Origin: Halomicronema hongdechloris C2206
Lineage (GTDB): Bacteria; Cyanobacteriota; Cyanobacteriia; Phormidesmidales; Phormidesmidaceae
Direction of reading: 5' to 3'
Assembly: GCF_002075285.3 (NCBI RefSeq)
Contig: NZ_CP021983.2
Span: 1,800,001 to 1,832,000 of the forward strand
DNA length: 32,000 nt
A model generated the notes under the pieces. It had not been told where the DNA came from. It saw only the letters and a program-made list of their open reading frames with translations, and made no database searches. Shown here piece after piece: positions 5,062 through 32,000 of this stretch. The stretch's first letter is position 1. Each line of letters begins with the position of its first letter. The position numbers were made by a program, and so were the translations under genes.

Positions 5062-6615
5062 TTATCCTGCGCCTAAAAGCAATAATCCCGCCATGGTGAT
5101 ACTATTCCAGGCGCTGTGCAGCAGGATCGGGGCCAGCAGGTTGCGGCAGCGGGTGTAGATCGTCCCCAAAACGATGCCCAACACCGTTAGAGGCAACACC
5201 TCTGAGAGGCTGAGGTGGGCCGTGGCGAAGAGTAAACTACTGGCCCCAATGGCCGCCGATACCGGCAGGTATCGGGTCAGCGACGGCAGCAGGAACCCCC
5301 GAAATAGGATCTCTTCAAAGACAGGGGCGGCGATGGCAGCGGTGAAGAAAAACAGGGCCAATGCGATCGCATCATTCTCTTCCAAGACCGTTTGCAACAG
5401 GGGATTACTCCCCCCCTGGCCCTGCCAGAGCTGTTGATTGACGAGCGAGATGCCAAACATCAAGGGCAAGGCCGCCAAGTAGCCACCCAGGCCCCAACGC
5501 CACCCCCCCTTCCAGTCGATGCGAAACCAGTCGGGGGGCAAGGGGCGATACGCCCGGATGGAGAAAAACAGCACCGCCAACCCGCCTGCAGCCATCAAGA
5601 GATAGTAGAGGGTGGCATAGAGAGCTCGTCCCCGGCTGCCCAAACTAGCCAACCCTAAGCCCAGACTACCTAGTATCAGCGGCAAGAAGATCTGGCCCAG
5701 GAAGAAAAAGCCGACGATCAACACCTGCCAGATGATCTCCCATGACCACGGGGTGTCCCATGTCACCCCGGCATTAGTCATCAGCCACGATTGCTCTCGC
5801 TGCAGCCAACGCTGCAAGACCACAAACAGCAGCAAGGCCGTTCCAGCCAGCCCCCCTAGGAACGGCAAAATCCCAATGACCGCCAGGCGCAGTAGGGTCT
5901 GCTCGGCGGCGTCCCGTTCCTGGGCCAGTAGAGCCTCGCGGGCGGCATCATCCCCTGCCACCTGGTAGAGGCGCTCTAGGGCCCGATAGCGAAACCAGCC
6001 ATCTAGATAGGTCTGCACTTGGGTCTCCGCCTCAGGCATCACCTGGGCTGGCTCTTGCCAGAGTCGACTCAGCACCTGAGCAGTCTGCTGGATGCCAGGC
6101 TGGACATCCGCCGCCTGGCTCAATTGTGACCAGGCCGCCTGGGCTTGCTTGAGATTCCCCCGTTCTGCCTGCAGCAGGCCGATACGCATATCCAGCTGCT
6201 GCACTAACTGCTGCTGCTGTTGCCAGGCATTCCGCAGTCGTTTGGGCACCTGGGGGGCCTCGTCGGTGGGGAGCCCTGGCATGGCCCCATCACCTGAATT
6301 CTGAGATGCCTCTAGATTGGCCTCGGCCGTCGCCTTTACCTCTTGATACTGCTGCAGGCTAGTCTGGATCGGATCGTTCCCTAACAGCCCTTGGCGAATC
6401 GTGGTGACAGACTGCTCCGGCAAGGTCGAACTGTCCCACTCACTGGCTTCCAGGAGTAGATCGGTTTGATAGAGCTGCAGGCGACTGGCAATCTGGGGTT
6501 CTTGCCAGCTATTGACTAACGCCTGGCCAATGACCAGGGCCACCAGCAGGGTCAATACCCCCAAGATGATTCGTCGCAAGGAGAAGGGGGAAGACGTCTC
6601 TGGCTCGACACTCAT
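5062..6615 (-). CDS. CPBP-family (CAAX/Abi) intramembrane glutamic endopeptidase with a long Gln-rich N-terminal region
   Basis: ORF 5062..6639 (TTG); ATG at 6615 preferred. The C-terminal domain carries the CPBP motifs EEILFRGFLL, FATAHL and HSAWN in multi-TM context. Confidence 0.85.
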   Translation of the reverse strand: MSVEPETSSPFSLRRIILGVLTLLVALVIGQALVNSWQEPQIASRLQLYQTDLLLEASEWDSSTLPEQSVTTIRQGLLGNDPIQTSLQQYQEVKATAEANLEASQNSGDGAMPGLPTDEAPQVPKRLRNAWQQQQQLVQQLDMRIGLLQAERGNLKQAQAAWSQLSQAADVQPGIQQTAQVLSRLWQEPAQVMPEAETQVQTYLDGWFRYRALERLYQVAGDDAAREALLAQERDAAEQTLLRLAVIGILPFLGGLAGTALLLFVVLQRWLQREQSWLMTNAGVTWDTPWSWEIIWQVLIVGFFFLGQIFLPLILGSLGLGLASLGSRGRALYATLYYLLMAAGGLAVLFFSIRAYRPLPPDWFRIDWKGGWRWGLGGYLAALPLMFGISLVNQQLWQGQGGSNPLLQTVLEENDAIALALFFFTAAIAAPVFEEILFRGFLLPSLTRYLPVSAAIGASSLLFATAHLSLSEVLPLTVLGIVLGTIYTRCRNLLAPILLHSAWNSITMAGLLLLGAG

Positions 6616-9650: not shown

Positions 9651-9722
9651 GCGGGTATAGCTCAGCGGTAGAGCGTCACCTTGCCAAGGTGAATGTCGCG
9701 CGTTCGAATCGCGTTACCCGCT
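9651..9722 (+). tRNA. tRNA-Gly (anticodon GCC)
   Basis: A 72-nt cloverleaf was folded by hand. Acceptor stem is GCGGGTA/TACCCGC plus discriminator T. D arm is GCTC-AGCGGTA-GAGC. Anticodon arm is TCACC-TTGCCAA-GGTGA, giving anticodon GCC. Variable loop is ATGTC. T arm is GCGCG-TTCGAAT-CGCGT. CCA is not encoded. Confidence 0.95.
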
Positions 9723-12240
9723 TATTGATTGCAGGCCTGATCCTCGGTTGCGGTTTGCCAGTGGCAGAGCACGCCGTAGAGACCCCAGATGGCCAGGGGG
9801 CGCAAATAGTGGCAGGCACGAAAGGTGCCGAGGGCGGTGATGGCTTCCGGGGTGCGAAATTGCAGGCCGTAGGCATAGATCTGCCGCACCACGGCGGCGG
9901 TAAGGTCTAGGGCTTGATCCACTCGCCCCATCAGGGCAAAGCCAGTGGCTAAGCCGAAGTTGATGCCGGTCCACACTTCCAGCTGGTGGGTGCTGTCGGG
10001 ATCTTCGGGGGAGCCGTCGGGCAAGACGCCGTTGGCAGCGCCGATAACGGTGCCGGGTTGGCCGGAGCGGAAGTTGCCGATTTGGGCCCCAGCAAATTTC
10101 TGGGTTTGGGGTTGGGCCTGGTGAGCGGCGTAGTGGTTGAATTTGAGGAAGCAGGCGTCGTAGATGGCATCTAGGGCCGATTGCAGCTGGGCCTCGGGGA
10201 CCAGGTCGGGCAGCCCCAATAGCCGCGCCCACACCTGGCCGCAGAGCTGATCGGCCATGACCACTTGGGAGCCACTGCCGCTGTCGAGGCGGTAGTAGCG
10301 GCCATTCCAGAGCTGTTGCTGGTAGACTTGGCGACTCTGGGCCAACCAGCACTGGTAGTGCTGTACTTGCTCGGGGGTAGCCGCCGGTGCCCGACCGGCG
10401 GCCATGAGCACCTCGGCCATTGCGATCGCAGATTCCAGGGCGGCCATCCAGAGGCCACCACAGTAGGCACTGACCCCCTTGAGCTGCCAATCATCGAAGG
10501 TTTGGTCGGGGGCGCCACCATTTTCTGGCAGGCCATCGCCGTCCTGGTCGAAGCCCTGTAGATAGGCCAGGGTCGCCGTCACCGCCGGCCAGCACTCCAG
10601 CAAAAAGTCCACATCGGTCTGGCCCGTGAGGCGATAGGCCCGATAGACCTGAATCACAAAATCACTGGGCAGGTCTTTCCACTGGTTACAGTCCTGGTAG
10701 CTGGTGTAGTTGGTCTGCACCCAGGGGTGTTCATTGGGGGCACCCAGATCGTGGGGGGTGGCCCCCCGGGCCTTGCGCATGGCCTGGGGACCCTCGACCC
10801 CGATGGTGGTGTAGTAGCCGATCACCCGCTGGCGGCTGTCTGCCTCGGGGATGGCCCGGGCAAAGGCCCGCAGCACCGCCTTCTCCAGTTCCGGCCATAG
10901 CAGCAGGGTGGCAAAGCCGCCGTAGAGGCGCACATCCAGGCTCTCGTACCAGCAGTAGTCAAAGCACTCCAGCACGGCAAACTGACCCACCGGATCCGCC
11001 GGGCTGGCGGCGGACCAGAGGCTGCCGCCGCTGGTGAGGTCATAGAGTTCATTGAACAGGGCCATCTTCAGCCAGTCCGGTAGCCGGGGCTGGGCCAGGA
11101 TGGGCTGCTGCCAGGCGATGATCTGCTCCTGCCAGCGGGGATACTGGGCCAGGGCGGTCGCGGCCAGGGACCAGGCCTGCTGGCCGTCACGGCCGAAAAA
11201 GTCAGTGTAGCGGCGATGGGCCGTGACGCCAGTGGCAAACTCCGTCACTGGCAGGTCCCAGCTGAGGACGAAGGGAATCTGGCGGGTTTCCCCCGGGGCC
11301 AGGGTAAAATCGCGATGCGATCGCCCCCCCCAGCTGTTCCCCCGCCGCTGCCGGGGTAGGGTCATCGACATTGGCCAAGGCACCATCCCGGCTAAAGGAT
11401 TGCCACAGATCGGCCCCATTCCCTTGGGGATGCCAGCGGCTGTGGTAGAACATCTCGGTCCCGGCAGCTGCCGTTGTCGCTAAGGCCCACTGGCCATCGC
11501 CTTCCGCCGGACGCGGGGATGGCGAGTTCTGGGCCCAGCCCCCTTGCAGCAGACAGCCCCCGCCACTCTCCCTGCTGCACCCAGCGATTATAGTTGCCCT
11601 CACTCTGGCCCAGACGGGGCACATAGTCATAAAAGGGACTGCCATCATCCCGCAACTGCACCTGAGGCGCCTTGCTGGCATTGGTAAACCAGCCCACCAT
11701 GTTCTGCCAGCTCAACATCACACTCAGGGTCAGGGGTCGGTCGGTGGCATTGTGAGCGGTCCAGCAAAACACCGCCACCGGGTAACTGCTTTCTCGATAG
11801 TTATGGGCCCAGATGGGGCTAAACTGCTCGCACCTGAGGGCCGCCTGGAAGACGCCGTCGTAGACATACCAACTGCGGGGGTAGAGGGCGTGGTAGGTGC
11901 CGCCCCCGGGATACCACTGCCACTGGCTGAGGGTGCCATCCGTCGGCCCGACGGTACTCAGAGCATAGGCCTGGGTCTGCCCTCCCCCTTGTTCAAAGAC
12001 ACTGAATTGACAGCCTGGAAAGGCCGCAAACACATGTTCGCCGCCGTCTAGGTGCCAGAGATTGAAGTCCCCCCGGGGAGAGCGACCGATGCAGCCAGCT
12101 CCAAATCCCCTAGGGGTGCCCCATGCCAGGGACCGTCATCTAAGTTGCTGGCATAGCGAACCACATAGTATATGGTCCCACCCCTGGCCGATGGGCCACT
12201 GCCAGGTATAGGGAGGAATCGATGGGATAGATGCTGCCAT
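9722..12240 (-). pseudogene. GBA2-type (bile-acid/glucosylceramide) beta-glucosidase, GH116-like, broken by at least 4 frameshifts in its 5-prime ~920 nt
   Basis: Segments in successive frames are MAASIPSIPPYTWQWPIGQGWDH (ATG 12240), YVVRYASNLDDGPWHGAPLG, GFGAGCIGRSPRGDFNLWHLDGGEHVFAAFPG...NYNRWVQQGEWRG, and CLLQGGW...GDGQWALATT...FYHSRWHPQGNG...GGAIA. These are followed by an intact 3-prime frame TLAPGETRQIPFVLSWDLPVTEF... running to the stop at 9722. One shift sits in a C/G homopolymer at 12107-12114 and another next to a C8 run at 11324-11331. Confidence 0.8.
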
Positions 12241-20816: not shown

Positions 20817-21116
20817 TTAGTACAGCTCTTCTTCCTGGTGGGTCATGATGGTGCAATCAGACGTCGGATACGCGACGCAGGTCAGCACGTAACCGGCTTC
20901 GATCTGGTCATCATCCAGGAAGGATTGGTCAGATTGGTCAACGTTACCTTCCATCATCTTGCCAGCGCAGGTGGAGCAAGCCCCTGCCCGGCAAGAATAG
21001 GGAAGTTCGATACCTTGCTCTTCAGCGGCGTCCAGAATGTATTCATCATCAGGCACTTCGACAGTGGTGTTAAGCCCTTCAGCTTCGTTGACCAACGTCA
21101 CCTTATAACTTGCCAT
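20817..21116 (-). CDS. petF: plant-type [2Fe-2S] ferredoxin I
   Basis: The 99-aa protein [53 protein letters not shown]...[22 protein letters not shown] has the canonical C-x4-C-x2-C...C ligands and a PetF-like sequence throughout. Confidence 0.95.
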
Positions 21117-23305: not shown

Positions 23306-24409
23306 TCAGTGAGTCCCTGGCGGTGCCGACTTAGGCGCCGCCAGGGTGGGCTCTGGCATAGCCGCCTGGCCGAAGGTGCCATTGAGGCCAGCGGCAATCT
23401 GGGCAAACACCTGGCTCACAGAGGCATCGGGCAGTTGTAGCGGCAGCGGGACCCCTGCATCGGCTAAGGCACAAATGCGCGGGTCAAGAGGCACCTGGCC
23501 CCACAGAGGCACCTGCAGATCCCGGGCAATCTGGGCGCCACCACCACTGCCAAAAATCGGAGTCGGGTTGCCGCAGTGGCCACAGAGCAGATAACTCATG
23601 TTTTCCACCAGCCCTAGCACTGGCACCCCCACCTGCCGAAACATGGCGACACTGCGCCGCACATCGGCGACGGCTACTTGCTGGGGCGTCGTCACCATGA
23701 TCACGCCGCAAATGGGGCTCTCCTGCATGATGGTAATCTGGGCATCGCCGGTACCAGGGGGCAAATCAATGAGCAGGTAGTCGAGGTCACCCCACTCGAC
23801 CTCTTGAAGAAACTGGGTCAGGATTTTATGCATCACTGGCCCTCGCCAGGCCAGGGGATGATCCTGCTCCGCCAGCAACCCCACCGACATCAGCTTGATG
23901 CCATGGGCGTCTAGGGGTAGGAACCGCTGGCCGCTGTCGGTCTCTACCACCTGGACACTGGATTGGCCCAGCCCCAACATGTGCGGCACATTGGGACCAT
24001 AAATATCGGCATCCAGTAGGCCCACCTTGGCGCCACTGCGAGTCAGGGCGGCGGCCAGGTTGACGGCGGTGGTTGACTTGCCGACTCCCCCTTTGCCACT
24101 GGAGACAGCCAGGGTAGTGCGGACGCCGGGAATGGTGCATAGCTGAGCGTAGGCCTTCTTGCACCAGGGCAGGGCAGTGAGGGTCTGTTGCACCTGCTGT
24201 TGAAGATGGCGCTGGTGGGTGCCCACATACAGGCGTAGATACACGTAGTCATCTACTATCTGCAGGTTACGCACCATGCCCAGGTTGACTAGGTTGTTGG
24301 GCAGGGTGGGGGCTTGAATGTCTTGCAGCCGGGCGATGACTTCGGCTTTACGAGTGTCGGCTTGGGGGTCAGCGGCGGCCCGATGAAAGGGAGATGAATG
24401 ACTAGGCAT
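23306..24409 (-). CDS. mrp: Mrp/ApbC/NBP35-family Fe-S cluster carrier ATPase with N-terminal DUF59/MIP18 domain
   Basis: ATG 24409 (MPSHSS...). DUF59-like LVNLGMVRNLQIVDDYVYLRL. Deviant Walker A SGKGGVGKSTTAVNLA. DLPPGTGD. Cluster-bridging C-x-x-C (CGHCG). Confidence 0.9.
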   Translation of the reverse strand: MPSHSSPFHRAAADPQADTRKAEVIARLQDIQAPTLPNNLVNLGMVRNLQIVDDYVYLRLYVGTHQRHLQQQVQQTLTALPWCKKAYAQLCTIPGVRTTLAVSSGKGGVGKSTTAVNLAAALTRSGAKVGLLDADIYGPNVPHMLGLGQSSVQVVETDSGQRFLPLDAHGIKLMSVGLLAEQDHPLAWRGPVMHKILTQFLQEVEWGDLDYLLIDLPPGTGDAQITIMQESPICGVIMVTTPQQVAVADVRRSVAMFRQVGVPVLGLVENMSYLLCGHCGNPTPIFGSGGGAQIARDLQVPLWGQVPLDPRICALADAGVPLPLQLPDASVSQVFAQIAAGLNGTFGQAAMPEPTLAAPKSAPPGTH

Positions 24410-24419
24410 TGGGAGTTTC

Positions 24420-25379
24420 TCAGCAAGACGCCTGAATCTTTGCGATCGCACGTTCCGAATAGATGCGCACGTCCATGTCGGGGTCATCTAAGGTTTGCTG
24501 CAGGGCCGGCAGCACACTGGCATCGCCGATATTACCCAGGGCCGTGGCAGCATCGCGACGCACATCGGAATATTCGTCGGAGAGGGCCTTGATTAAGGCC
24601 GGAATCGCCTGAGCATTTGGGATTTGCTGCAGGGCTCGAGCGGTGAACTTGCGCACCTGCCACTCCGCATCGGCCATGGCGGCCATGAGGGCCTCCGTAG
24701 CCGCCGCATCGGCTTGTAATTCTAGAGACTTGGCGGCATTACGACGCACCTGCCAGTCGGCATCCGTCCTCAGCAGCTCACACAGCAGCGGTATTACCCC
24801 CGCATCGCTGAGATGGCCCAGGGTGAGGGCCGTGGCCCGTCGCACACTCTCCTCTGCATCCTTGGCCAAGGCTAGGACTGGTTCACACCGCACCACCTGA
24901 TTCAGGTAGCGCAGGGTGGTCACCGCCGCCTCCCGCAGCGCTGGATTATCAGACTCGAAGAAGGGCAAAATGAACGGCAAGGCTTGGGCATCGTGGATCT
25001 TGCGCAGCAGAATCAACACCCCCAGTTGGGCGTGGACATCGTCTTGCTGCAAGACATCCAACAGCGTCATCAAATCCTGGGTGGACACCAGTTCCTTCAG
25101 AGCCGCCAGCGCCTCGTCTCGCACCTGCTGATGAGGGGCATTGAGGCACTCGATTAGGGGCGGAATCGCCACCGGATTCGCAAGCTCCCACAGGGTGGTG
25201 ACGGCAATGTGCTGCACCCTAGGATGGTCGTCCTGGAGAGCCGCAATCAAGGGCTCGATGGCATCTTCATCCCCCAGGTGTTGCAGGGTTTTGACCGCCA
25301 CCAAACGCTCTTCTACATCGTGCGATCGCAACATCTCAACCCATTGGGCGAGGTCAGGGTCCATATCGGTGGTGTGCAT
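24420..25379 (-). CDS. HEAT-repeat (PBS-lyase HEAT-like) protein
   Basis: 319 aa built of ~30-aa repeats of the type D..VR..A..AL..(I/L)G...A(I/L)P.L...L.D. The stop is 10 nt before the mrp start. Confidence 0.85.
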   Translation of the reverse strand: MHTTDMDPDLAQWVEMLRSHDVEERLVAVKTLQHLGDEDAIEPLIAALQDDHPRVQHIAVTTLWELANPVAIPPLIECLNAPHQQVRDEALAALKELVSTQDLMTLLDVLQQDDVHAQLGVLILLRKIHDAQALPFILPFFESDNPALREAAVTTLRYLNQVVRCEPVLALAKDAEESVRRATALTLGHLSDAGVIPLLCELLRTDADWQVRRNAAKSLELQADAAATEALMAAMADAEWQVRKFTARALQQIPNAQAIPALIKALSDEYSDVRRDAATALGNIGDASVLPALQQTLDDPDMDVRIYSERAIAKIQASC

Positions 25380-25416
25380 GGGTGTTCTTCTAAATGACGG
25401 CAGTTGCAGAGGAAAC

Positions 25417-25495
25417 GTCTTGCATGTTTAGTGTTGAGTGTTAGGTTCCTGATGGCCAAGCCCGAATTCAAAACTCAAAATTCATAACTCAAGAC
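25417..25495. repeat. imperfect long inverted repeat built from heptamer-like units (GTCTTG...AGTGTTGAGTGTTAGG / TTCAAAACTCAAAATTCATAACTCAAGAC)
   Basis: The outer arms GTCTTG (25417-25422) and CAAGAC (25490-25495) are exact. The inner arms pair imperfectly, with several G-U and mismatches. The right arm belongs to the same AAAACTC/AAAATTC heptamer family seen at 18231-18265 and 18395-18420. Confidence 0.5.
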
Positions 25496-25502
25496 TTTTG
25501 CG

Positions 25503-25730
25503 TCATCGCAGCAGGAACGGAATCTGCACCGTAATGGCATTGGTGGGGCATTCTTTCTCGCAGGGCAGGCAGAACCAGCATTCGTCATATTTCATGTAGG
25601 CCTTGCCGGTGTCTGGATTTTTCACCAGCACATCGAGGGGACAAACCTCAATGCAGGCCACGCACTTCTCCAAGCATTTCGACTCATCGACGATGACGGG
25701 TACATCCACCCGTTGAGTAGTTAAGGCCAT
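25503..25730 (-). CDS. 2x[4Fe-4S] ferredoxin, AprB N-terminal-domain-like (75 aa)
   Basis: The two Cys clusters are CLEKCVACIEVCP and CWFCLPCEKECP. The layout VDESKC...CIEVCPLDVL...(insert)...YDECWFCLPCEKECPTNAIT parallels the ferredoxin domain of APS reductase beta subunits. The C-terminal AprB tail is absent. Confidence 0.8.
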   Translation of the reverse strand: MALTTQRVDVPVIVDESKCLEKCVACIEVCPLDVLVKNPDTGKAYMKYDECWFCLPCEKECPTNAITVQIPFLLR

Positions 25731-25805
25731 AGAAAATGTCCTTCGATAGACTGCAAAACGGCAAAACAGACGATTACGAAAACCCTAGCCGAGTCAATAG
25801 CCTCC

Positions 25806-27512
25806 CTACTGACGCACAGCCACGTCGTAGACCTCCTGGTCTAGGTCGACATTGACGACGTAGGGTTCAACCGGGCGCTTAAACAGCTCCATGGCCCCGA
25901 CCTCGCTCTTTTTCAGGTTGACGTGACAGAACCACTCTTGGTTATTCTTCTCGGGATAGTCGAGCCGGTAGTGATAAAGCCCCCAGCGGCTTTCCTGGCG
26001 AAATAGAGAGGCACGGGCCGCCATTTCGGCACAGTCGCGGATGAAGTGCACCTCCATGCAGCGCATCAACTCGTGGGGATCGCGGGCTCCCATCAGGTTT
26101 AGAGTGTCCTCATAGGCCCTGAACTTCTCCAGGCCGATGTCCATCTTGTAGGGGGATTTGGGCGGTTGCAAATAGTCGTTGACTAGCCGCCGCAGTTTAT
26201 ACTCCATTTGGGTATGGGGCACCCCTTCCGGCTGCTCTAGGGGCCGATAGATGCGGGCTTTTTCGGCGGCTAAAAACGCCTGGTCAGGCTCGACGTGGTC
26301 TAGGGCTTGCCCATACTCCATGGCATTTTCCCCGGCAATGCGGCCATAGACGAAAGCCCCAATCATGTAGTTGTGAGGCACACTGGCCATGTCCCCGGCG
26401 GCATAGAGACCGGGCACAGTGGTTTCGGCCTTGTCATTCACCCACACCCCCGAGGCGCTGTGGCCGCTGCAGAGGCCGATTTCTGAGATGTTCATCTCGA
26501 CCCCGTGGTAGCGGTAGTCTTCCCCGCGGCCGCCGTGGAAGCGTCCCCGACTGGGCCGCTCATTGGACCACAGAATCGACTCGATCTCCGAGATGGTGTC
26601 ATCATCGAGGTGGTACATCTTCAGGTGCACCGGGCCTTTGCCAGAGTTGAGCTCCTTCCACACCTCCAGCATCATCTGGCCGCTCCAGTAATCGCAGCTA
26701 ATGAAGCGGTGCCCTTCGGCATTAGCCGTGTAGGCCCCGAAGGGACTGGCCACATAGGCACAGGCAGGGCCGTTATAGTCTTTGATCAAGGGATTGATCT
26801 GAAAGCATTCGATGTTGGTAAGTTCGGCCCCGGCATGGTAGGCCATGGAGTAGCCGTCACCGGCGTTGGTGGGATTTTCATAGGTGCCGTAGAGATAGCC
26901 AGATGCAGGCAATCCCAGCCGCCCACAGGCCCCAGTGCAGAGCACCACGGCCTTGGCCTGAATCACCACGAAGTCACCGCTGCGGACATCGAAGCCCACG
27001 GCCCCAGTGACTCGGCCGTCCTGCACCATCACCCGGGTGGCCATGACCCGATTGGTCACCTTGACCTGGTGGCGCTTTACTTGGCGGGCCAGAATTTTTT
27101 TCAGGTCTTTGCCTTCCGGCATGGGTAAGACATACTTGCCGACCCGATGCACCTGCTTCAGGTCGTAGTTGCCTTCGTGGTCTTTCTGGAACTTGACGCC
27201 CCAGCTCTCCAACTCTTGGATCACCTCGAAGCCCAGGCGACCAGTTTGGTATACCGCCTTCTGATTTAAGATGCCATCGTTGGCGATGGTGATCTCGCGC
27301 ACGTACTGCTCTGGAGTGGAGTTGCCAGGGATGACGGCGGTGTTGACCCCATCCATCCCCATTGCGATCGCACCGCTGCGGCGAATATTGGCCTTCTCCA
27401 ACACCAGCACCTCGCTCTCGGGACTGGCCTGTTTGGCCTTAATTGCCGCCATGGTTCCAGCGGTACCGCCACCGACTACCAGAAAATCGGTCTTCAAATA
27501 CTGAGTATTCAC
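25806..27512 (-). CDS. FAD flavoprotein of the FrdA/SdhA superfamily, AprA (adenylylsulfate reductase alpha)-like, 568 aa
   Basis: GTG start with a GAGGGAG SD. FAD motif DFLVVGGGTAGTMAA. Blocks that line up by eye with Desulfovibrio AprA are EKANIRRSGAIAMGMDGVN, ELESWGVKF, RVTGAVGFDVRSGDFVVIQAKAVVLCTGACG, NAGDGYSMAYHAGAELTNIE, LCSGHSASGVWVN, TTVPGLYAAGD and HELMRCMEVH...FRQESRWGLYHYRLDYPE...WFCHVNLK. Confidence 0.8.
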   Translation of the reverse strand: MNTQYLKTDFLVVGGGTAGTMAAIKAKQASPESEVLVLEKANIRRSGAIAMGMDGVNTAVIPGNSTPEQYVREITIANDGILNQKAVYQTGRLGFEVIQELESWGVKFQKDHEGNYDLKQVHRVGKYVLPMPEGKDLKKILARQVKRHQVKVTNRVMATRVMVQDGRVTGAVGFDVRSGDFVVIQAKAVVLCTGACGRLGLPASGYLYGTYENPTNAGDGYSMAYHAGAELTNIECFQINPLIKDYNGPACAYVASPFGAYTANAEGHRFISCDYWSGQMMLEVWKELNSGKGPVHLKMYHLDDDTISEIESILWSNERPSRGRFHGGRGEDYRYHGVEMNISEIGLCSGHSASGVWVNDKAETTVPGLYAAGDMASVPHNYMIGAFVYGRIAGENAMEYGQALDHVEPDQAFLAAEKARIYRPLEQPEGVPHTQMEYKLRRLVNDYLQPPKSPYKMDIGLEKFRAYEDTLNLMGARDPHELMRCMEVHFIRDCAEMAARASLFRQESRWGLYHYRLDYPEKNNQEWFCHVNLKKSEVGAMELFKRPVEPYVVNVDLDQEVYDVAVRQ

Positions 27513-27686
27513 TTAAACACTCCCTCAGCGTTTACGGCAGTGAACAACACCAAGTCCAGGTTGAGATCGGGGGTTCAGACCACTAGATCTGGGCTTGGAT
27601 GAGATTTCAATCAACGGGGAAATATGCTTTGCCTGCATCCAGCCCTGGCAGCCCTGGAGAAACAATTCCCATCAAGGTTCTCCTTA

Positions 27687-27726
27687 TTGACTAGAGCTGA
27701 ACATTGACTAGCGCTAAACTGACTAG
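27687..27726. promoter_or_regulatory. three direct repeats of (T)TGACTAG spaced 17 and 15 nt
   Basis: TTGACTAG at 27687-27694 and 27704-27711, and CTGACTAG at 27719-27726, with further TGAC half-sites at about 27731 and 27747. They lie in the divergent aprA-like/LysR intergenic region. Confidence 0.35.
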
Positions 27727-27861
27727 ATTCTGACATCGGAAAAGCGACTGACAAAAACCGCTGTTTCTAATGCCTTTTACAGGATTCTAGAAAATACTCA
27801 ATGAGCCAGCAATGGCGTTTGTAACAGCTGCTACGGTTTCAAGATTCAAGTCTTTTATAGA

Positions 27862-27886
27862 CTCATAAAAAGTTTGAATATATGAG
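27862..27886. promoter_or_regulatory. inverted repeat CTCATA-N13-TATGAG, candidate LysR-type operator
   Basis: Perfect 6-bp arms in AT-rich DNA, ~92 nt upstream of the LysR GTG start. LysR regulators typically bind AT-rich dyads upstream of their own divergently transcribed gene. Confidence 0.35.
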
Positions 27887-27977
27887 CGACCCTGCATCGG
27901 CAAATGATTAATGAATAATTCCTGTAAATCTCACGGCAAATCTTAAGTTGAATGGCCCAATTGATTAGGAGGCTATC

Positions 27978-29987
27978 GTGGAAATTTACCAGCTTAAGGT
28001 GTTTTTAGAAGTGGCACGGTGCCTTAGCTTCACGGAAGCCGCCACTGCTCTAAATTTAACCCAGCCCGCCGTTAGCGCCAAAATCAAGTCTTTAGAAGCT
28101 GATCTGGATACTCCCCTGTTCAATCGCCTAGGGCGGCGAATTGAACTGACTCAGGTGGGGCAGTATCTGTTAGAAGAAGCTCCTTATCTAGTTGACTTAG
28201 AGGCTCAACTCATCGCTGAAATTGAAGATATAAAGCAGGGGAAGTTCAGCACGCTAAAAATTGGCTGCATGGCTGAACTCAATAATCACTGGCTACCCTC
28301 AGTGCTGTTTGAGTATCGTCGGCAATGGCCAAGTGTGCAGACCCGTTGCTGCCAGTTTGAATCCGCAGAAAAGTTATATCGTGCCATCAAAAATGGCGAT
28401 GCCGACCTTGGCTTTTCAGATCTGAGCTTTTCCGAGTTTGACGATCTATCGGAGACGGTGATCGATACCATTCACTACTCCCTGATTGCCTCCAGGAATC
28501 ATCGGCTGGCTCAGCAGCCATGGTTGAGCTTGAAGGAACTGCTGCATCAACCCTGGGTGCTATTACCTGACGGCAGCCCCAGTCGCATCATCTTTGAGAA
28601 ACGCCTGCGGGAGCTGGGCCTAAGCCTGGCTGACTTCACCCAGGTCGAAATTGTCGATGCCCCTGGCTTGGTGCGGACCTATGTGCTGCAGGGGCATTAT
28701 CTTAGCTTTATTGCCGACGTTGACTTGCAAATTGAGCAACAAGCCGGCTTAATTCAGGCCATCGCCCTAGAAGAATTTGCCTTGGGAACACCGCTGTTTC
28801 TGCTGATGTCGAAACGCCTAGCCCGGGCCTTAGCCCAACAGCCTATTCCCTTTCGAGGTCGCCAGGCCCTAGAGCCAATTCGCCAGTTCATCACCCTGCT
28901 GCATCAGCGGCAGTCGCCCCCAGCTCCCCAGCGGCAGACTGCGGCGACAGACTCTACTCCACCGCCTCCGGCCCGGTTTCAAGCCCCCCACTTCATCAGG
29001 CGGCCCCGGTCGAGCCAGCCTGGTGACACCCTCACGCTCACGATTGGCACTCAAAATCGCACTATCCAAACGGTAACGGCGGGGCTAATTATTCAACGGC
29101 TGGGGCTGCTAGAGCACTTCTTACCTCAGCAGGGTCGCTACAGGGGCACCCAGTATCAGATTCGCTGGTGGGACTACACCTCAGGGGCCCCCATTGTGGC
29201 TGGGTTGGCGTCGAAGCAAATTGATATCGGGGTCTTGGGGGACTACCCGCTCCTATTGAGTGCCATGCCCCCCCAGGGGACTGATGCCAACACCTGTCTG
29301 ATTAGCTTCGTGGCTAGTAATCCCGACGGTACCGGCAATGACATCATTGTGCCCCATCGCTCCCACCTTAGCCGTATCGAAGACCTCGAGGGCCGGGTGA
29401 TTGCGGTGCCGTTTAGTTCTGCTGCCCACAGCATGGTGATGCGATCGCTACACCATAAAAATTTGTTGGAGCAGGTTAGGCTCACCTCCATTGACAACCT
29501 CAATCCGCAACGGCTAATTAGCGATTTGGGGCAAGTAGATGGCTATGCCTACTTTGCACCGTTCCATGAAATCGCCAAGCACAAGGGACAGTGTCGTCGA
29601 CTGCTGGAAGACAACTTAGATGGCCTGCCGACCTTCCACGGCATCGTGGTGCAGCAAGAGTTGGCCAGTCAATATCCTGAGGTGGTGGTGGCCTACTTGC
29701 AGGCGTTGCTGGCGGCCCAGTATTGGTATGCCACCACACCAATGGCCGCAACCCTGGTCAGCCGCTGGGTCAATTTAGATGCGGCCATCGTGTCGAAGAC
29801 CTTACTCACCGGCGCCAGTGACTATACCCAGGGCGTGTTTTTCCCAGAGACTCATATCCGTGCTGACTGGGTCAGTGAACATGTCAACCAGCTCCAGCAC
29901 ATTGCCGGCCATGAGTATCTAGGCCAGATGAATCTGAATCACTGGATGCAGCCGGAATTTTTGCAGCGGGCGGTGGCGTCTCTTTAG
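27978..29987 (+). CDS. LysR-family transcriptional regulator fused to a C-terminal SsuA/TauA/NMT1-like solute-binding domain (669 aa)
   Basis: GTG start with a TAGGAGG SD. The wHTH is MEIYQLKVFLEVARCLSFTEAATALNLTQPAVSAKIKSLE. A full LysR effector domain spans residues ~90-295, followed by a Pro/Gln-rich linker (SPPAPQRQTAATDSTPPPPARF). The ~320-aa C-terminal domain has type-2 SBP motifs of the NitT/TauT family: YQIRWWDYTSGAPIVAGLASKQIDIGVLGDYPLL, IEDLEGRVIAVPFSSAAHSMVMRSL and VDGYAYFAPF. There is no signal peptide or TM segment. Confidence 0.85.
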   Translation: MEIYQLKVFLEVARCLSFTEAATALNLTQPAVSAKIKSLEADLDTPLFNRLGRRIELTQVGQYLLEEAPYLVDLEAQLIAEIEDIKQGKFSTLKIGCMAELNNHWLPSVLFEYRRQWPSVQTRCCQFESAEKLYRAIKNGDADLGFSDLSFSEFDDLSETVIDTIHYSLIASRNHRLAQQPWLSLKELLHQPWVLLPDGSPSRIIFEKRLRELGLSLADFTQVEIVDAPGLVRTYVLQGHYLSFIADVDLQIEQQAGLIQAIALEEFALGTPLFLLMSKRLARALAQQPIPFRGRQALEPIRQFITLLHQRQSPPAPQRQTAATDSTPPPPARFQAPHFIRRPRSSQPGDTLTLTIGTQNRTIQTVTAGLIIQRLGLLEHFLPQQGRYRGTQYQIRWWDYTSGAPIVAGLASKQIDIGVLGDYPLLLSAMPPQGTDANTCLISFVASNPDGTGNDIIVPHRSHLSRIEDLEGRVIAVPFSSAAHSMVMRSLHHKNLLEQVRLTSIDNLNPQRLISDLGQVDGYAYFAPFHEIAKHKGQCRRLLEDNLDGLPTFHGIVVQQELASQYPEVVVAYLQALLAAQYWYATTPMAATLVSRWVNLDAAIVSKTLLTGASDYTQGVFFPETHIRADWVSEHVNQLQHIAGHEYLGQMNLNHWMQPEFLQRAVASL

Positions 29988-30799
29988 GCGGCCTCCATGC
30001 TTTTGAGGGTCTCTTCCCGAATGCAGTCAAATACCTGCCGATGCAACGTCATAAAATCAGGGGAGAGGGTGTCATCAAAATGGCGGGGGCGACGCAGATG
30101 AATCGGGATCTCGGCTTTAATATGCCCTGGATGTACTCCCATGATGAAGATGCGATCGCACAGGAAAATTGCCTCCTCAATGTCGTGGGTGACAAAAATC
30201 ACCGTAGTTTTCAAATCACTCCAGATATCGAGCAGTAGCTCCTGCATCATGTGGCGGGTTTGGGCATCGAGGGCGGCAAAGGGCTCATCCATCAACAACA
30301 CCGATGGCGAATTTACCAAAGCCCGGACAATGCTAGCTCGTTGCTGCATTCCCCCCGACAGCTGGGCCGGATAGCTATGGCGATAGCGATAGAGCCCCAC
30401 CCGATTCAGGTAGTCATTGACCAACTCAGTGCGCTCAGCCTTAGCCATGCCACGGATCTTGAGGCCCAACTCAATATTCTGAAACGTCGTTTTCCAGGGC
30501 AACAACGAATACTGCTGGAAGACAAACCCCCGGTCGGCCCCCGGTCGACAAACCGGCTGTTGGTCTACCAAAATGTAGCCCTCCGAGGGCTTGAGAAAAC
30601 CGGCAATGCCATTGAGTAGGGTAGACTTGCCACAGCCAGACGGCCCTAACAAGCAGACAAATTCCCCCGGTTGAATACTGAGGTTAATAGCATCGAGCAC
30701 ATGATTGATGTGTCCCTTCCGTCTGAAGGTGACTGACAGCCCCTCCACTTGCACAGACCCCTTAACACTCTGCGTTTGCTGCAACTGTTGCATCAACAT
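29984..30799 (-). CDS. ABC transporter ATP-binding protein, NitT/TauT (nitrate/sulfonate/bicarbonate) family
   Basis: Walker A GPSGCGKST, Q-loop, signature LSGGMQQR, Walker B LLMDEPFAALD and H-loop THD. The size (271 aa) and sequence style match SsuB/TauB-type ATPases. Confidence 0.9.
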   Translation of the reverse strand: MLMQQLQQTQSVKGSVQVEGLSVTFRRKGHINHVLDAINLSIQPGEFVCLLGPSGCGKSTLLNGIAGFLKPSEGYILVDQQPVCRPGADRGFVFQQYSLLPWKTTFQNIELGLKIRGMAKAERTELVNDYLNRVGLYRYRHSYPAQLSGGMQQRASIVRALVNSPSVLLMDEPFAALDAQTRHMMQELLLDIWSDLKTTVIFVTHDIEEAIFLCDRIFIMGVHPGHIKAEIPIHLRRPRHFDDTLSPDFMTLHRQVFDCIREETLKSMEAA

Positions 30800-30893
30800 G
30801 ATTTTTCCAACCTAACGCGACAAATTGGCAGGGAACATGGGCTGAGGTTAGCCAGATCAAGCGGCAGTCTGAGCTAGCCAACGCCGCCAACCC

Positions 30894-31754
30894 TCAGGCA
30901 TCTTGCTTTTTAATCACCCGCCAAGGCATGAGGGCAGCCATGGTGCGATTGACAGCCCAAGAGCTGATTGCCCCCATCAAGCCAATCAGCAACATGCCCA
31001 TGACAATCGGTGGATAGTTCGAGGTGACGTAAGATTCCCAGGTGATATAGCCAATGCCGTAACGCCCCGCCAAGATTTCAGCGGTGACTAAACAAAACCA
31101 GGCATTGCCCATGCCGATGGTAAGACCACTGGCGATACTGGGTAGGGAGCCAGGCAAAACAATATCTTTGAAAATATGCCAGGATCTTGCCCCTAAACAC
31201 TGCCCCACCCGAATCAACACCGTGTCACTGAGAATGCTCTCCACCCCACGAATGGTGCTAATCAACACCGGGAAAAACGCCCCCACAAAGGTGATATAAA
31301 CCATGCCACTCTCTGCATTCGGAAACATCAAAATTGCCAGGGGAATCCAGGCCACTGCTGGAATCGGCCGCAGCAGCTCCAACGGAGGCATCAGCAAATC
31401 TTCAACCTTCTCGAACCAGCCCGCCAGCACCCCTAGAATGATGCCCAGGCATGAGGCCACGGCATAGCCAATCATGACCCGCTGAATACTCGAGCGAAAG
31501 TGAACCCACGGGTCAGTGGTGAAAAAGGTCAGCGTGGCTTTCAACACCTGCAGCGGAGACGGTATCAGCTGAAAATTTACGAAAAAGCTGAAGCCGATGT
31601 TGCATAGAAACTGCCAGCCGCCAAAGAAAATCACTAAGGCCAGCAGGCGCCGCGCTGAACGATTGGCAAAAAACAACGCCCTCAAAGCCATGGCCGTTTG
31701 ATAACGCCAGCCCCGCCGCGACTGCCGTGTCGCCTTCGAAGTCATAACTGCCAT
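30894..31754 (-). CDS. ABC transporter permease, NitT/TauT family (SsuC/TauC-like)
   Basis: ATG 31754 is preceded by GGAGAGGAAG. It has six TM segments and an EAA-type loop region (IRGVESILSDTVLIRVGQCLGARSWHIFKDIVLPGSLP). Confidence 0.9.
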   Translation of the reverse strand: MAVMTSKATRQSRRGWRYQTAMALRALFFANRSARRLLALVIFFGGWQFLCNIGFSFFVNFQLIPSPLQVLKATLTFFTTDPWVHFRSSIQRVMIGYAVASCLGIILGVLAGWFEKVEDLLMPPLELLRPIPAVAWIPLAILMFPNAESGMVYITFVGAFFPVLISTIRGVESILSDTVLIRVGQCLGARSWHIFKDIVLPGSLPSIASGLTIGMGNAWFCLVTAEILAGRYGIGYITWESYVTSNYPPIVMGMLLIGLMGAISSWAVNRTMAALMPWRVIKKQDA

Positions 31755-31801
31755 AGGGTCTTCCTCTCCAGCAGAGCACATCCGTTCATCCCAGGGGCAA
31801 C

Positions 31802-31833: not shown

Positions 31834-32000
31834 CACCAAGCCGGATGACCATTAGCAGCCACCTTACGCAGTTAGTGAAGTGCCCGTCTGTATTCCATAG
31901 GGCAGTAGTGATGCACATTCTCCGTAGATGGTCGGCTACAGCATTTCCTGGCTGGGTGCTGTAATCAGACTCAATGGCTGACTCAAGTTAGCGCCGACCT

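Follow-up and report, generated by a model that had tools for sequence, protein, structure and literature searches.

A conserved AprA-like flavoprotein and NitT/TauT-type importer module in Halomicronema hongdechloris with a probable role in releasing sulfur from an imported compound

We analysed a 32,000-nt stretch of the genome of the cyanobacterium Halomicronema hongdechloris C2206 (NZ_CP021983.2, positions 1,800,001 to 1,832,000; hereafter, the window), one end of which encodes an AprA-like flavoprotein together with small Fe-S and HEAT-repeat proteins, a LysR-type regulator and an ABC importer (Table 1). According to ORF calls and Pfam/NCBIfam scans of the window, the minus strand carries, in this order, the genes for the flavoprotein, the ferredoxin, the HEAT-repeat protein and Mrp, separated by 75, 123 and 10 nt. 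The longest mrp ORF (to 24487) would run 68 nt into the HEAT gene, and an internal ATG at 24409 yields the 10-nt gap. The LysR gene diverges from the flavoprotein gene, and the ATPase gene is convergent with the LysR gene, their ends overlapping by 4 nt. No SsuD/SsuE, TauD, Xsc, Sat or CysH-type genes were detected among the larger ORFs of the window. The gene order, the three gaps and this absence had all been described in an earlier sequence-only reading, and the locus architecture it proposed is confirmed. The same reading offered a binding-protein gene beyond position 32000 as one of two possibilities, and on extending the contig we found this gene, just past that position and 206 nt from the permease gene. 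Because a separate periplasmic binding protein is thus encoded, the alternative that its function had been captured by the regulator fusion was abandoned.

Table 1. Features of the locus (positions are those of the window)
Feature	Position	Strand	Support
Mrp/ApbC-type Fe-S carrier ATPase, module-specific	23306..24487; probable start ATG 24409	-	Pfam ParA/NUBPL 319 bits + FeS_assembly_P
HEAT-repeat partner protein of the flavoenzyme (predicted)	24420..25379	-	HEAT_2 165 bits
AprB-like minimal ferredoxin, 2x[4Fe-4S], 75 aa	25503..25730	-	Fer4 dicluster domains
AprA-like FAD flavoprotein, presumed catalytic subunit, 568 aa	25806..27512	-	NF006131/PRK08275
Conserved control-region block, GTA-N8-TAC dyad	27806..27871	.	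candidate operator for LysR-type regulator
LysR-type regulator with importer-binding-protein-like C-terminal domain	27978..29987	+	HTH_1 + LysR_substrate + NMT1
ABC importer ATPase, NitT/TauT type	29984..30799	-	ABC_tran
ABC importer permease, NitT/TauT type	30894..31781	-	BPD_transp_1
Binding-protein gene, 3' end in window	31988..32000, on to 33526 (G000:C1:1831988-1833526)	-	genome read

The binding-protein gene encodes a 512-aa product with a lipoprotein signal, an SsuA/TauA-like (NMT1) domain and a NosL-fold C-terminal domain that matches NosL 7og7 (TM 0.69). Its best NCBIfam match is SsuA_fam (118.7 bits, under the cut-off of 163.5), its only PDB sequence matches are TauA/SsuA, and the top eight fold matches of its AF2 model are all SsuA/TauA. 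The best NCBIfam matches of the ATPase (SaoA, TauB and NtrCD) and the best matches of the permease (NtrB, SaoP, TauC and SsuC) are all below cut-off. Substrates of the NitT/TauT family include nitrate, cyanate, bicarbonate and pyrimidine precursors, and the family also imports sulfate esters (AtsRBC), which matters for the chemistry of the module.

For comparative synteny, we used 80 loci, of which 50 have full flanks (26 cyanobacterial and 24 others). The module is present in four bacterial phyla, and synteny kept in these 80 loci shows that such an arrangement goes far beyond chance. The same two-domain importer is found in the operon in proteobacteria, a verrucomicrobium and an actinomycete: the orthologous binding protein, permease and ATPase share the operon in 22 of the 24 non-cyanobacterial loci (an orthologue of the ATPase in 23), and the permease is syntenic with the module. 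Leptolyngbya-type cyanobacteria and Prochlorococcus likewise have orthologous importer genes, adjoining those of the enzyme. The same set of parts recurs in Acinetobacter, Methylobacterium, Sinorhizobium, Bradyrhizobium and the actinomycete with a flavoprotein-HEAT fusion. Among 301 cyanobacterial genomes, binding-protein orthologues occur in four, each with the flavoprotein gene within 6 kb, and solely in flavoprotein-carrying genomes (4/4 vs 0/285). The genes flanking the module in the window show no linkage to it in relatives. These data support a reading in which the genes from mrp (23306) through to that of the binding protein (end 33526) make up one accessory functional module. In our literature search, we found no paper describing it, and no substrate, product or expression datum for any of its members.

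In all 50 related loci with full flanks, the flavoprotein occurs together with the HEAT protein and the ferredoxin of 75 aa. The sequence-only reading had proposed a module for uptake, redox and regulation that is self-contained and does not follow the ssu/tau paradigms, and had named comparative synteny as its test; the proposal stands this comparison. In the actinomycete Nonomuraea, the flavoprotein and the HEAT protein are fused in one 940-aa ORF, and the best NCBIfam match of the HEAT protein is to NF010374, a family of flavoprotein-HEAT fusions, in its C-terminal part (610-896). By gene order and natural fusion, the HEAT protein is a predicted universal partner of the flavoprotein, which settles for partner over neighbour a choice that had been left open. 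The ferredoxin contains eight Cys in two [4Fe-4S] motifs and a CWFC motif, matches the aprB model below cut-off and is 87-97% identical among cyanobacteria.

The window Mrp carries Walker A (GKGGVGKS) and CGHC motifs and shares 46% identity with a second Mrp in the same genome. Module-type Mrp orthologues (at least 66% identity) were identified in 15 of the 301 cyanobacterial genomes, 14 of which also encode the flavoprotein (co-occurrence 14/1/2/284). Mrp is present in 23 of the 26 cyanobacterial full-flank loci vs none of the 24 others; proteobacterial modules have DUF971 in its place, and a DUF971 gene follows the HEAT gene in 24 of the 33 non-cyanobacterial loci. DUF971 has been linked to Mrp and Fe-S maintenance by Price et al., and is fused to Mrp in HCF101. 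Judged by these counts, Mrp is a module-specific paralogue and not a chance neighbour, of the two options previously considered.

The extra domain of the regulator aligns with the 512-aa binding protein at 37% identity over 265 aa (E 1e-58) and retains 36 of the 53 invariant residues of the binding-protein family; by homology, this domain and the binding protein of the importer are paralogues. The regulator gene is divergent from the flavoprotein gene in 20 of 46 cyanobacterial loci. Which regulator accompanies the module depends on the lineage, and in this genome it is the LysR protein. Within the 465-nt intergenic region, the block with the GTA-N8-TAC dyad alone is conserved among 14 cyanobacterial loci, and is a candidate operator of the LysR-type regulator. 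A promoter/terminator scan of the locus returned nothing above chance.

The flavoprotein, a single-copy gene product in this genome, scores 1009 bits against the NF006131/PRK08275 model (cut-off 587) and remains far below the AprA-model cut-offs (aprA, 198 vs 642; PRK06854, 322 vs 557). Among solved structures, the MtPAPSR alpha subunit comes closest (8a8o, 247 bits over the full length), with AprA (1jnr/2fja) next. Residues were mapped to AprA by hand from HMMER alignments, with His398 placed via the MtPAPSR alignment. N57 (Af N74) and H351 are invariant across the family, H351 being aligned with the His in the GGHGQAG motif of MtPAPSR, and we take the two conserved residues to be sulfite-adduct contacts in AprA. 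However, Af R265 is replaced by L242, with Leu in every family member, and Y95, E141 and Q145 (Af) as well as R121 and S122 (Mt) are also replaced, the replacements being invariant in 68 sequences. With the catalytic Arg265 changed family-wide, sulfite-adduct chemistry is therefore not assured. Given the loss of Arg265 and of the nucleotide contacts, and two CysH-type genes in the genome, the flavoprotein is probably not an APS/PAPS reductase.

By raw count, 34 of the 80 loci have sulfur-linked neighbours, which include sulfate ABC transporters, SsuD-like monooxygenases, TauE/YeiH exporters and SrpI encapsulin with cysteine desulfurase. In Nostocales, the gene immediately 5' of the flavoprotein gene is a true SsuA_fam member, and around the Sinorhizobium copy lie TauD and transporters for sulfate and sulfonate. 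TauE/SafE-type and YeiH-type exporter genes lie 3' of the operon in close relatives, and none at the window's own copy. Redox genes also recur: FdxA in six loci and a large flavin oxidoreductase in four. The Methylobacterium cluster includes both FdxA and ferredoxin-NADP reductase.

The neighbouring genes suggest that the flavoenzyme is a ferredoxin-driven reductase releasing sulfite from a sulfo compound. The importer would take up a compound R-X-SO3-, with X being C, O, S or N. In cyanobacteria, photosynthetic ferredoxin would supply low-potential electrons; in some proteobacteria, they would come from NADPH by way of ferredoxin-NADP reductase and FdxA. They would then pass through the small ferredoxin to FAD. 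By analogy with APS/PAPS reductases, the reduced flavin would attack the sulfur and release sulfite for assimilation, with a leaving group other than a nucleotide. The regulator could detect the imported compound with its cytoplasmic copy of the binding domain, Mrp or DUF971 may keep the oxygen-exposed clusters loaded, and excess sulfite or sulfate could leave via the TauE and YeiH transporters of close relatives. If the substrate were a C-sulfonate, attack by the flavin would have to expel a carbanion, a chemically difficult step; substrates with the sulfo group linked through O, S or N are more plausible, and then the likeness of the binding protein to SsuA/TauA would say little. We consider this module, with ferredoxin-driven sulfite release, the best explanation of the data, at a probability of roughly 0.55; by the predicted route, the module would probably make the sulfur of an imported compound available.

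Alternatively, the module might be real and its substrate sulfur-free: a reductase or dehydrogenase of the fumarate-reductase superfamily could act on an imported organic acid or nitrogen compound, at a C=C, C-N or comparable bond, and the operon would be an ordinary one for catabolism or nitrogen scavenging. In 28 of the 33 non-cyanobacterial loci, the gene is preceded by a GntR/UTRA regulator, a type characteristic of catabolic operons, and amidase genes lie near 11 loci, with an M20 peptidase nearby in Methylobacterium; these genes would also be compatible with a carbon or nitrogen catabolic operon. The loss of the AprA catalytic Arg and nucleotide contacts and the breadth of NitT/TauT substrates fit this reading too. 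It is nevertheless unlikely: the PAPS and APS reductases (247 and 158 bits) are far closer than fumarate reductase, succinate dehydrogenase and aspartate oxidase (at most 79), the fumarate-reductase His-Pro-Thr motif is not kept, sulfur genes recur as neighbours, and the PDB sequence matches and top eight fold matches of the binding protein are all sulfonate binders.

We regard as improbable a reverse-Apr-like enzyme that oxidises sulfite or reduced organosulfur, imported or cell-made, and passes electrons to ferredoxin for detoxification or export. Dissimilatory AprAB is reversible in sulfur oxidisers according to the literature, and the exporter genes of close relatives would suit such a role. 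However, reverse Apr requires AMP, and the nucleotide contacts are gone here; MtPAPSR, the nearest characterised relative, has no reverse activity in the literature; the gene-encoded NADPH-to-ferredoxin supply chains indicate electron input; and a dedicated high-affinity importer suits scavenging more than detoxification. A plain assimilatory APS/PAPS reductase of the MtPAPSR type, supplied with sulfate or a close analogue, is very improbable, although MtPAPSR is the best solved match and AprAB-like complexes, sometimes beside nitT/tauT transporters, have been proposed for sulfur assimilation: besides the low model scores, the residues replaced in 68/68 sequences and the resident CysH-type pair, neither a sat nor an APS-kinase gene turned up in the analysed loci, and the importer is of the NitT/TauT rather than the sulfate type. 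That the genes are unrelated neighbours and the module an accident of this genome can hardly be maintained: the scan without promoters or terminators above chance and the 123-nt (ferredoxin/HEAT) and 206-nt (binding protein/permease) spacers would fit, but synteny across four phyla and gene fusion in one lineage already contradict it, as do near-perfect genome-level co-occurrence and the paralogy of the regulator domain and binding protein.

Relative to AprA, the flavoprotein retains the two presumed sulfite-adduct contacts and loses the catalytic Arg265 and the nucleotide contacts; the ferredoxin is minimal and lacks the tail of AprB. Where fumarate reductase has His-Pro-Thr, the flavoprotein has Asn-Pro-Leu. 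By sequence and fold, the nearest proteins to the binding protein are the sulfonate binders SsuA and TauA, at ~20% identity.

The window was mapped from an ORF listing together with Pfam and NCBIfam scans. The minus-strand gene order described in the sequence-only reading (AprA-like flavoprotein, ferredoxin, HEAT-repeat protein and Mrp) and the gaps of 75, 123 and 10 nt were confirmed, the last of them holding for an Mrp start at the internal ATG 24409; the longest Mrp ORF overlaps the HEAT gene by 68 nt. As had also been claimed, no gene of the SsuD/E, TauD, Xsc, Sat or CysH types was found among the larger ORFs of the window. Extension of the sequence beyond position 32000, where a binding-protein gene had been suspected, uncovered such a gene, and the importer is therefore complete. 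The accompanying suggestion, that the regulator fusion had captured the function of the periplasmic binding protein, is ruled out by this separate gene. The database names of the module proteins are all generic. For the transporter and the regulator, the best NCBIfam hits, to a selenium-linked 'Sao' transporter and to LysR_Sec_metab, remain below the respective cut-offs. An Rfam scan of the module detected no riboswitch and no other RNA family, and the counts from the promoter and terminator scan were below the shuffle means.

Genes of the module in the window and immediately beyond its end
Feature	Coordinates	Strand or orientation	Basis or remark
FAD flavoprotein, 568 aa	25806-27512	-	NF006131/PRK08275, 1009 bits
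Two-cluster ferredoxin, 75 aa	25503-25730	-	Two [4Fe-4S] motifs
HEAT-repeat protein, 319 aa	24420-25379	-	Pfam/NCBIfam
Mrp/ApbC-type ATPase	23306-24487 (longest ORF)	-	Pfam/NCBIfam
LysR regulator with added NMT1-type binding domain	27978-29987	Divergent from flavoprotein gene	HTH_1 and LysR_substrate
ABC ATPase	29984-30799	Converges on LysR gene	
ABC permease	30894-31781	Converges on LysR gene	
Binding lipoprotein, 512 aa	31988-33526	206 nt upstream of permease	Genome beyond window

Elsewhere in the window, a GH116-type glycoside hydrolase appears to be split over two overlapping minus-strand ORFs (9722-11419 and 11392-12033) that separate the N-terminal from the catalytic domain; a pseudogene, a sequencing error or a frameshift could account for this. 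Past the window end, ATP-grasp/GNAT and CoA-binding ORFs lie about 750 nt apart on the minus strand (4443-5726 and 6473-7219 of L001, a stretch of this genome; window-equivalent 35443-38219). Relatives carry a single open frame of ~912-940 aa that matches the first part of this pair, and the gene is probably disrupted in the genome of the window.

Flavoprotein loci were collected by a scan of one genome per species, which yielded 80 loci, and all window proteins were mapped onto them; loci with at least 6.5 kb on each of the two sides, 26 cyanobacterial and 24 others, were treated as full-flank. Neighbours were counted by tblastn; simple ORF calling gives antisense artefacts in high-GC loci. 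Every full-flank locus, 26/26 cyanobacterial and 24/24 other, encodes the ferredoxin and the HEAT protein alongside the flavoprotein, and in 22 of the 24 non-cyanobacterial loci, orthologs of the binding protein, permease and ATPase are encoded within the same operon, the binding-protein orthologs being 43-49% identical with the C-terminal extension included. These loci outside the cyanobacteria belong to beta- and gammaproteobacteria and Verrucomicrobiota and commonly show the order flavoprotein-ferredoxin-binding protein-permease-ATPase-HEAT or flavoprotein-ferredoxin-HEAT-importer; the same gene set is present in annotated records of Acinetobacter baumannii, Methylobacterium radiotolerans, Sinorhizobium americanum and Bradyrhizobium. 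The comparison of synteny that had been proposed as a check thus finds the flavoprotein, ferredoxin, HEAT and importer genes together across phyla. The module is conserved in four phyla, and we hold with high confidence that the locus is one functional module.

The actinomycete Nonomuraea has flavoprotein and HEAT protein joined in a single 940-aa chain, encoded after GntR-ferredoxin-binding protein-permease-ATPase, and this chain fits the fusion family NF010374 (PRK13800). Against the same model, the window flavoprotein scores 915 bits (positions 10-566) and the HEAT protein 100 bits (610-896); the window, with its separate genes, falls outside the family as defined by one ~900-aa chain above 1196 bits. 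It had been left open whether the HEAT protein is a scaffold or simply a neighbor. Because it is universal beside the flavoprotein (50/50 full-flank loci) and fused to it in one lineage, we regard it as a partner. Assignment of the HEAT protein to the phycobilisome lyase/NblB type was rejected, given that its scores are far below the cut-offs and that the gene accompanies the module in non-phototrophs.

Two layouts were found in cyanobacteria. The one seen in the window recurs in Leptolyngbya-type genomes, Pseudanabaena and Prochlorococcus; in Nostocales, a different binding-protein gene, a true SsuA_fam member (220 bits), lies immediately ahead of the flavoprotein gene. The flavoprotein was detected in 16 of 301 sampled cyanobacterial species genomes (13/134 genera) and in 15 of 401 Pseudomonadota genomes; it is absent from the sampled genome of the window's own family, and none of 14 model genomes encodes a protein above the NF006131 cut-off. 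Several copies are located on plasmids, as in Leptolyngbya sp. BL0902. Orthologs of the 512-aa binding protein occur in 4/301 cyanobacterial genomes, all four flavoprotein-positive, with the two genes at most 6 kb apart. In module-carrying relatives, the genes that flank the module in the window are located elsewhere and not beside it, which excludes them as module parts, and this, together with the patchy occurrence of the flavoprotein, makes the module appear to be an accessory unit independent of its flanks in the window. The plant-type ferredoxin gene at 20817-21116 was also dismissed as a part of the module, since it is not conserved beside it in any of the 80 loci.

Several individual loci deserve mention. 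In Nostocales (loci L026, L027, L030-L033, L039, L040 and L047), 1-7 kb are often inserted between the flavoprotein and ferredoxin genes, including genes for a GNAT acetyltransferase and for a 260-aa protein that we take for a methyltransferase; the pair is split, yet both members are kept. Two Prochlorococcus single-cell genomes (L045 and L046) encode the binding protein, permease, ATPase, YeiH, a LysR-like fusion, flavoprotein, ferredoxin and HEAT protein, with Mrp present also in L045; the fusion is divergent (658 aa, 24% identity to that of the window), and an amidase gene and a second transporter lie in the surroundings. A contig labelled as a Rhizobium sp. MAG (L034) carries a cyanobacterial-type copy (flavoprotein 81-82% and ferredoxin 88% identical) with an SsuA-type gene upstream, as in Nostocales, which suggests a mis-binned contig or a recent transfer. 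In L072, L079 (Acinetobacter) and L081, a family-2A encapsulin (SrpI-like) operon with genes for a long cysteine desulfurase and a CysE-like protein, and in L072 also a rhodanese gene, lies no more than about 8 kb from the module, in the same neighborhood as sulfate ABC genes.

Mrp matches PF10609 with 319 bits and has the deviant Walker A motif GKGGVGKS and C302-G-H-C305, in line with the Mrp/NBP35/ApbC family, and scores below the cut-off of the ApbC equivalog NF008669 (299.8 vs 348). The genome encodes a second Mrp, 46% identical to that of the module. The module Mrp is present in 23/26 full-flank cyanobacterial loci and in none of the others. Orthologs of the module type (at least 66% identity) were identified in 15 of 301 cyanobacterial genomes, 14 of which also encode the flavoprotein, mostly within a few kb; the resulting table (14 genomes with both, 1 with Mrp only, 2 with the flavoprotein only and 284 with neither) comprises related genomes that are not independent, with 12-13 genera represented. 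This protein, too, had been left as either a maturation factor or a neighbor, and it now emerges as a module-tied paralog in cyanobacteria. In proteobacteria, a DUF971 gene ends the operon in 24/33 loci, and it opens the alphaproteobacterial operons. DUF971 proteins are cofit with Mrp and have been proposed to function in Fe-S maintenance, and plant HCF101 is a fusion of Mrp and DUF971 (Price et al., bioRxiv 10.1101/072470). Since two distinct families of Fe-S helpers stand at this one position, the function of the module would seem to include the supply or repair of clusters.

The regulator is a LysR-type factor, with HTH_1 at residues 5-62 (78 bits) and LysR_substrate at 88-281 (88 bits), followed by an extra NMT1-type domain at about residues 346-610. 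This C-terminal domain is 37% identical to the importer binding protein over 265 aa (E 1e-58) and is the nearest relative of the latter within the genome; both are much farther from TauA and SsuA than from each other. Of the 53 invariant residues of the binding-protein family, the regulator domain retains 36, compared with an overall identity of 36%. On this similarity, the regulator would, in the simplest reading, detect in the cytoplasm what the importer transports. Within the divergent region of 465 nt, a single block (27806-27871) is conserved in 14 cyanobacterial loci. This block is a candidate LysR operator with a GTA-N8-TAC dyad, and the dyad forms a perfect palindrome, GTAGCGATCGCTAC, in L002, the closest relative. 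A GntR/UTRA regulator is encoded directly upstream in 28/33 non-cyanobacterial loci; the alphaproteobacterial loci have a Crp/Fnr regulator instead.

The binding protein itself matches only TauA and SsuA among PDB sequences, and SsuA/TauA structures also take the first eight places in the fold comparison with its AF2 model (mean pLDDT 75). Its best NCBIfam match is SsuA_fam (TIGR01728), at 118.7 vs a cut-off of 163.5; on TauA, it scores 67.6. The regulator domain has a score of 75.4, and neither protein reaches the SsuA_fam/TauA cut-offs. SsuA and TauA have the class II binding-protein fold, and in TauA, the sulfonate is held by main-chain amides of glycine-rich loops (Gly61, Gly79, Thr132; PMC6906117). 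The SG and GxxGD loops of the binding protein were aligned by hand to TauA Gly61 and Gly79, with Gln30 outside the alignment, and the taurine-specific Glu106 of TauA is absent. A C-terminal extension of ~130 aa (L001:1027-1413, minus strand; window-equivalent 32027-32413) is modelled with a pLDDT of 87 (AF2) and resembles the copper chaperone NosL (7og7; TM 0.69, rmsd 2.3 Å), with Pfam NosL at 23.7 bits vs a cut-off of 24. The extension is conserved from cyanobacteria to Acinetobacter, with the invariant residues W, D, K, A, F and A. A copper-chaperone role was rejected: Cys, Met and His are not conserved in this domain, and thus it probably has no copper site. NosL belongs to the ABC-transporter complex NosDFYL, and by analogy a docking function of the NosL-fold domain is conceivable.

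The flavoprotein scores 1009 bits on NF006131 (PRK08275; cut-off 587), a model that carries only the generic label 'fumarate reductase/succinate dehydrogenase flavoprotein subunit'. Among solved structures, its nearest match is the alpha subunit of the PAPS reductase of Methanothermococcus thermolithotrophicus (MtPAPSR, 8a8o; 247 bits, full length), followed by AprA (158 bits); fumarate reductases, succinate dehydrogenases and aspartate oxidases reach at most 79 bits. The scores on the aprA model TIGR02061 (197.8 vs a cut-off of 641.75 bits) and on NF005331 (PRK06854; 322 vs 557) are below the thresholds, as is that of the ferredoxin on the aprB model (34.8 vs 135.65). By these membership tests, the enzyme is filed under NF006131 and lies outside the AprAB, MtPAPSR and Ssu/Tau classes. 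Judging from the same matches, the flavoprotein and the APS/PAPS reductases have a common ancestry and probably also the flavin chemistry in common.

Residues were mapped to AprA and MtPAPSR by hand from HMMER alignments, and conservation was assessed in 48 cyanobacterial and 20 other sequences. We take the APS-binding and catalytic residues of AprA, from the Archaeoglobus fulgidus (Af) structure, to be Asn74, Tyr95, Glu141, Gln145, Trp234, Arg265 and His398. Asn74 is kept as N57 in this mapping, and H351, aligned with the His of the MtPAPSR GGHGQAG motif, is also kept and is probably the equivalent of Af His398. The other positions are replaced: Arg265 by Leu, Tyr95 by Glu, Gln145 by Val and Trp234-Tyr235 by Tyr-Glu in 68/68 sequences, and Glu141 variably, by Val or Ile in cyanobacteria and mostly by Met elsewhere. 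The PAPS-specific loop of MtPAPSR consists of Lys120, Arg121 and Ser122, and the catalytic residues of AprA are retained in that enzyme (PMC10322725). The three loop residues align with K126, Y127 and V128 of the flavoprotein, and position 126 is K in cyanobacteria only, with T, S or A in the other sequences. The ferredoxin has eight Cys in two motifs and the Trp of CWFC, and has no AprB tail. Because the APS/PAPS residues are replaced, the AprB tail is absent and the genome holds two CysH-type genes, a sulfonucleotide is very unlikely to be the substrate.

What the enzyme would do instead can be approached through its neighbors. The Methylobacterium operon includes genes for FdxA and ferredoxin-NADP reductase; six loci encode FdxA, and four encode a flavin oxidoreductase of 1190 aa. 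Electron-input genes are thus built into some of the operons, which supports a ferredoxin-dependent reductase; in cyanobacteria, photosynthetic ferredoxin could be the electron donor. Sulfur-linked neighbors lie within 10 kb in 34 of the 80 loci (raw count) and comprise sulfate ABC genes, SsuD-like monooxygenases, SfnB-like dehydrogenases and MetY, as well as SrpI-type encapsulin with cysteine desulfurase, CysE and rhodanese. In the closest cyanobacterial relatives, TauE/SafE and YeiH 'sulfate exporter' genes follow Mrp; the genome of the window has no homologs of TauE or YeiH. The Sinorhizobium copy is flanked by sulfate and sulfonate transporters and TauD. From this genomic context and the likeness of the binding protein to SsuA/TauA we infer the link of the module to sulfur, and we favor the reading that the module scavenges sulfur by means of a ferredoxin-driven reductase that releases sulfite, with a probability of about 0.55.

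With respect to the substrate class, chemical reasoning gives C-sulfonates no advantage over S-sulfonates, sulfate esters or sulfamates, because attack of the flavin on sulfur is easiest with a thiolate or a protonated alkoxide or amine as the leaving group; speculatively, the invariant Glu73 and Glu212 could act as the proton donors. A more specific proposal, which we put forward tentatively and consider rather less probable than the scavenging role as such, is that the flavoprotein, ferredoxin and HEAT protein form an enzyme with a reaction so far not known for any other, in which ferredoxin drives the reductive liberation of sulfite from a sulfo compound other than a nucleotide, independently of O2 and ATP and via a flavin-N5 sulfite adduct. 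The compound could be a sulfate ester, an S-sulfonate, a sulfamate or even a C-sulfonate.

If true, bacteria would have a third general way to assimilate organosulfur compounds, in addition to the oxygenases (SsuD, TauD) and to the anaerobic enzymes of the radical or nitrogenase-like kind, operating in cyanobacteria including Prochlorococcus, in rhizobia, in Burkholderia-type bacteria and in Acinetobacter, without a need for oxygen or the ATP cost of sulfate activation, and wired directly to ferredoxin in phototrophs. About 4-5% of the sampled cyanobacterial and proteobacterial species would then have this route of sulfur acquisition, the carriers including marine Prochlorococcus, soil and nodule bacteria, Burkholderia-type symbionts of insect guts and Acinetobacter baumannii. 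The flavin chemistry of the APS-reductase type would gain a new substrate class, and 'aprA-like' genes in genomes and metagenomes, now called fumarate reductase or assigned to dissimilatory sulfur metabolism, would have to be reread. The locus is, moreover, a clean case of a transcription factor that copies the binding protein of its transporter as a sensor, and it offers a HEAT-repeat subunit of a redox enzyme. An enzyme-specific Mrp paralog that is interchangeable with DUF971 could help to define the function of these Fe-S helpers. The module parts are small, soluble and expressible, so that the chemistry is open to direct test.

Components of the module can be compared with several known systems. 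The cyanobacterial NrtC and CmpC ATPases (PDB 8WM7, 9UAK/9UAI), the C-terminal regulatory-domain structures of which are among the fold matches of the binding protein, likewise carry a copy of a NitT/TauT binding protein that serves as a sensor in the cytoplasm; however, the copy is fused to the transporter ATPase there and to a complete LysR factor here, where it would therefore control transcription rather than transport activity. HCF101 and the Mrp/NBP35 proteins share with the module Mrp a DUF59-type N-domain, the deviant Walker A and the CxxC, and the DUF971 part of HCF101 has its counterpart in the proteobacterial operons, where DUF971 holds the place equivalent to that of Mrp. In contrast to HCF101, the module Mrp has no DUF971 domain, and unlike the general Fe-S suppliers, it is an extra paralog tied to one enzyme module.

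AprAB (PDB 1JNR/2FJA, 3GYX) has the same fold and two-subunit logic, and Asn74 and the His of the GGHGQAG motif are kept, whereas in the module flavoprotein Arg265, Tyr95, Glu141 and Gln145 are replaced and Trp234 is Tyr, and the module ferredoxin is devoid of the long C-terminal tail that wraps the alpha subunit. The window showed neither sat nor qmo (qmoABC) nor aprM, and the same holds for the gene clusters that recur over the 80 loci. The closest characterized enzyme is MtPAPSR (PDB 8A8O), an assimilatory PAPS reductase (Jespersen et al. 2023, PMC10322725), which resembles the module pair in its FAD alpha subunit with the fumarate-reductase fold, its small two-[4Fe-4S] ferredoxin beta subunit, the Trp beside the first Cys of the second cluster motif (CWFC) and the assimilatory setting. 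In the module enzyme, however, Arg121 and Ser122 are replaced and the Arg at the position of AprA Arg265 is Leu; the module loci have no sat, APS-kinase or PAP-phosphatase neighbors; the enzyme comes with a HEAT protein as obligatory partner, with an ABC importer of its own and with Fe-S helpers; and the family is found in aerobes and oxygenic phototrophs.

A full-text search of the literature for the HEAT-associated subfamily, its importer, regulators and Fe-S helpers returned no paper on them, the yield being limited to the MtPAPSR paper and to general 'AprAB-like' remarks. These remarks describe an 'AprAB-like complex', with an AprA-like protein devoid of the residues typical of AprA and an AprB-like protein without the tail (Neukirchen and Sousa 2021, DiSCo, PMC8477390), and divergent AprA paralogs that likewise do not have such residues (Colman et al. 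2020, PMC7174415). As stated there, such proteins occur mostly in anaerobes, the groups named being for the most part Clostridia, Negativicutes, Deltaproteobacteria, Nitrospira and Archaeoglobi, with sat, cysDC or asr as neighbors and sometimes nitT/tauT transporters, and a role in sulfur assimilation has been proposed on the basis of the neighbors (PMC8477390, PMC7174415). By description, which is the level at which the groups are compared, the module pair shares the missing AprA residues, the missing AprB tail and the nitT/tauT neighbors, whereas the HEAT partner, the two-domain binding protein, Mrp/DUF971 and the cyanobacterial and proteobacterial subfamily are not mentioned in the available parts of those papers.

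Finally, the Ssu and Tau systems (SsuABC with SsuDE; TauABC with TauD) share with the module the importer family, a binding protein nearest to SsuA/TauA and the sulfur-scavenging gene setting. The transporter in the window is encoded without a partner oxygenase (SsuD/SsuE or TauD), and the genome has no TauD-family gene and a single distant luciferase-like monooxygenase. The module binding protein differs from those of Ssu and Tau in its score below the SsuA_fam cut-off and in its extra NosL-fold domain. The mismatch with the ssu/tau paradigm that the sequence-only reading had pointed out therefore stands: an Fe-S flavoenzyme takes the place of the oxygenase, and in contrast to the Ssu and Tau reactions, the chemistry of the module is predicted to be reductive and O2-independent.
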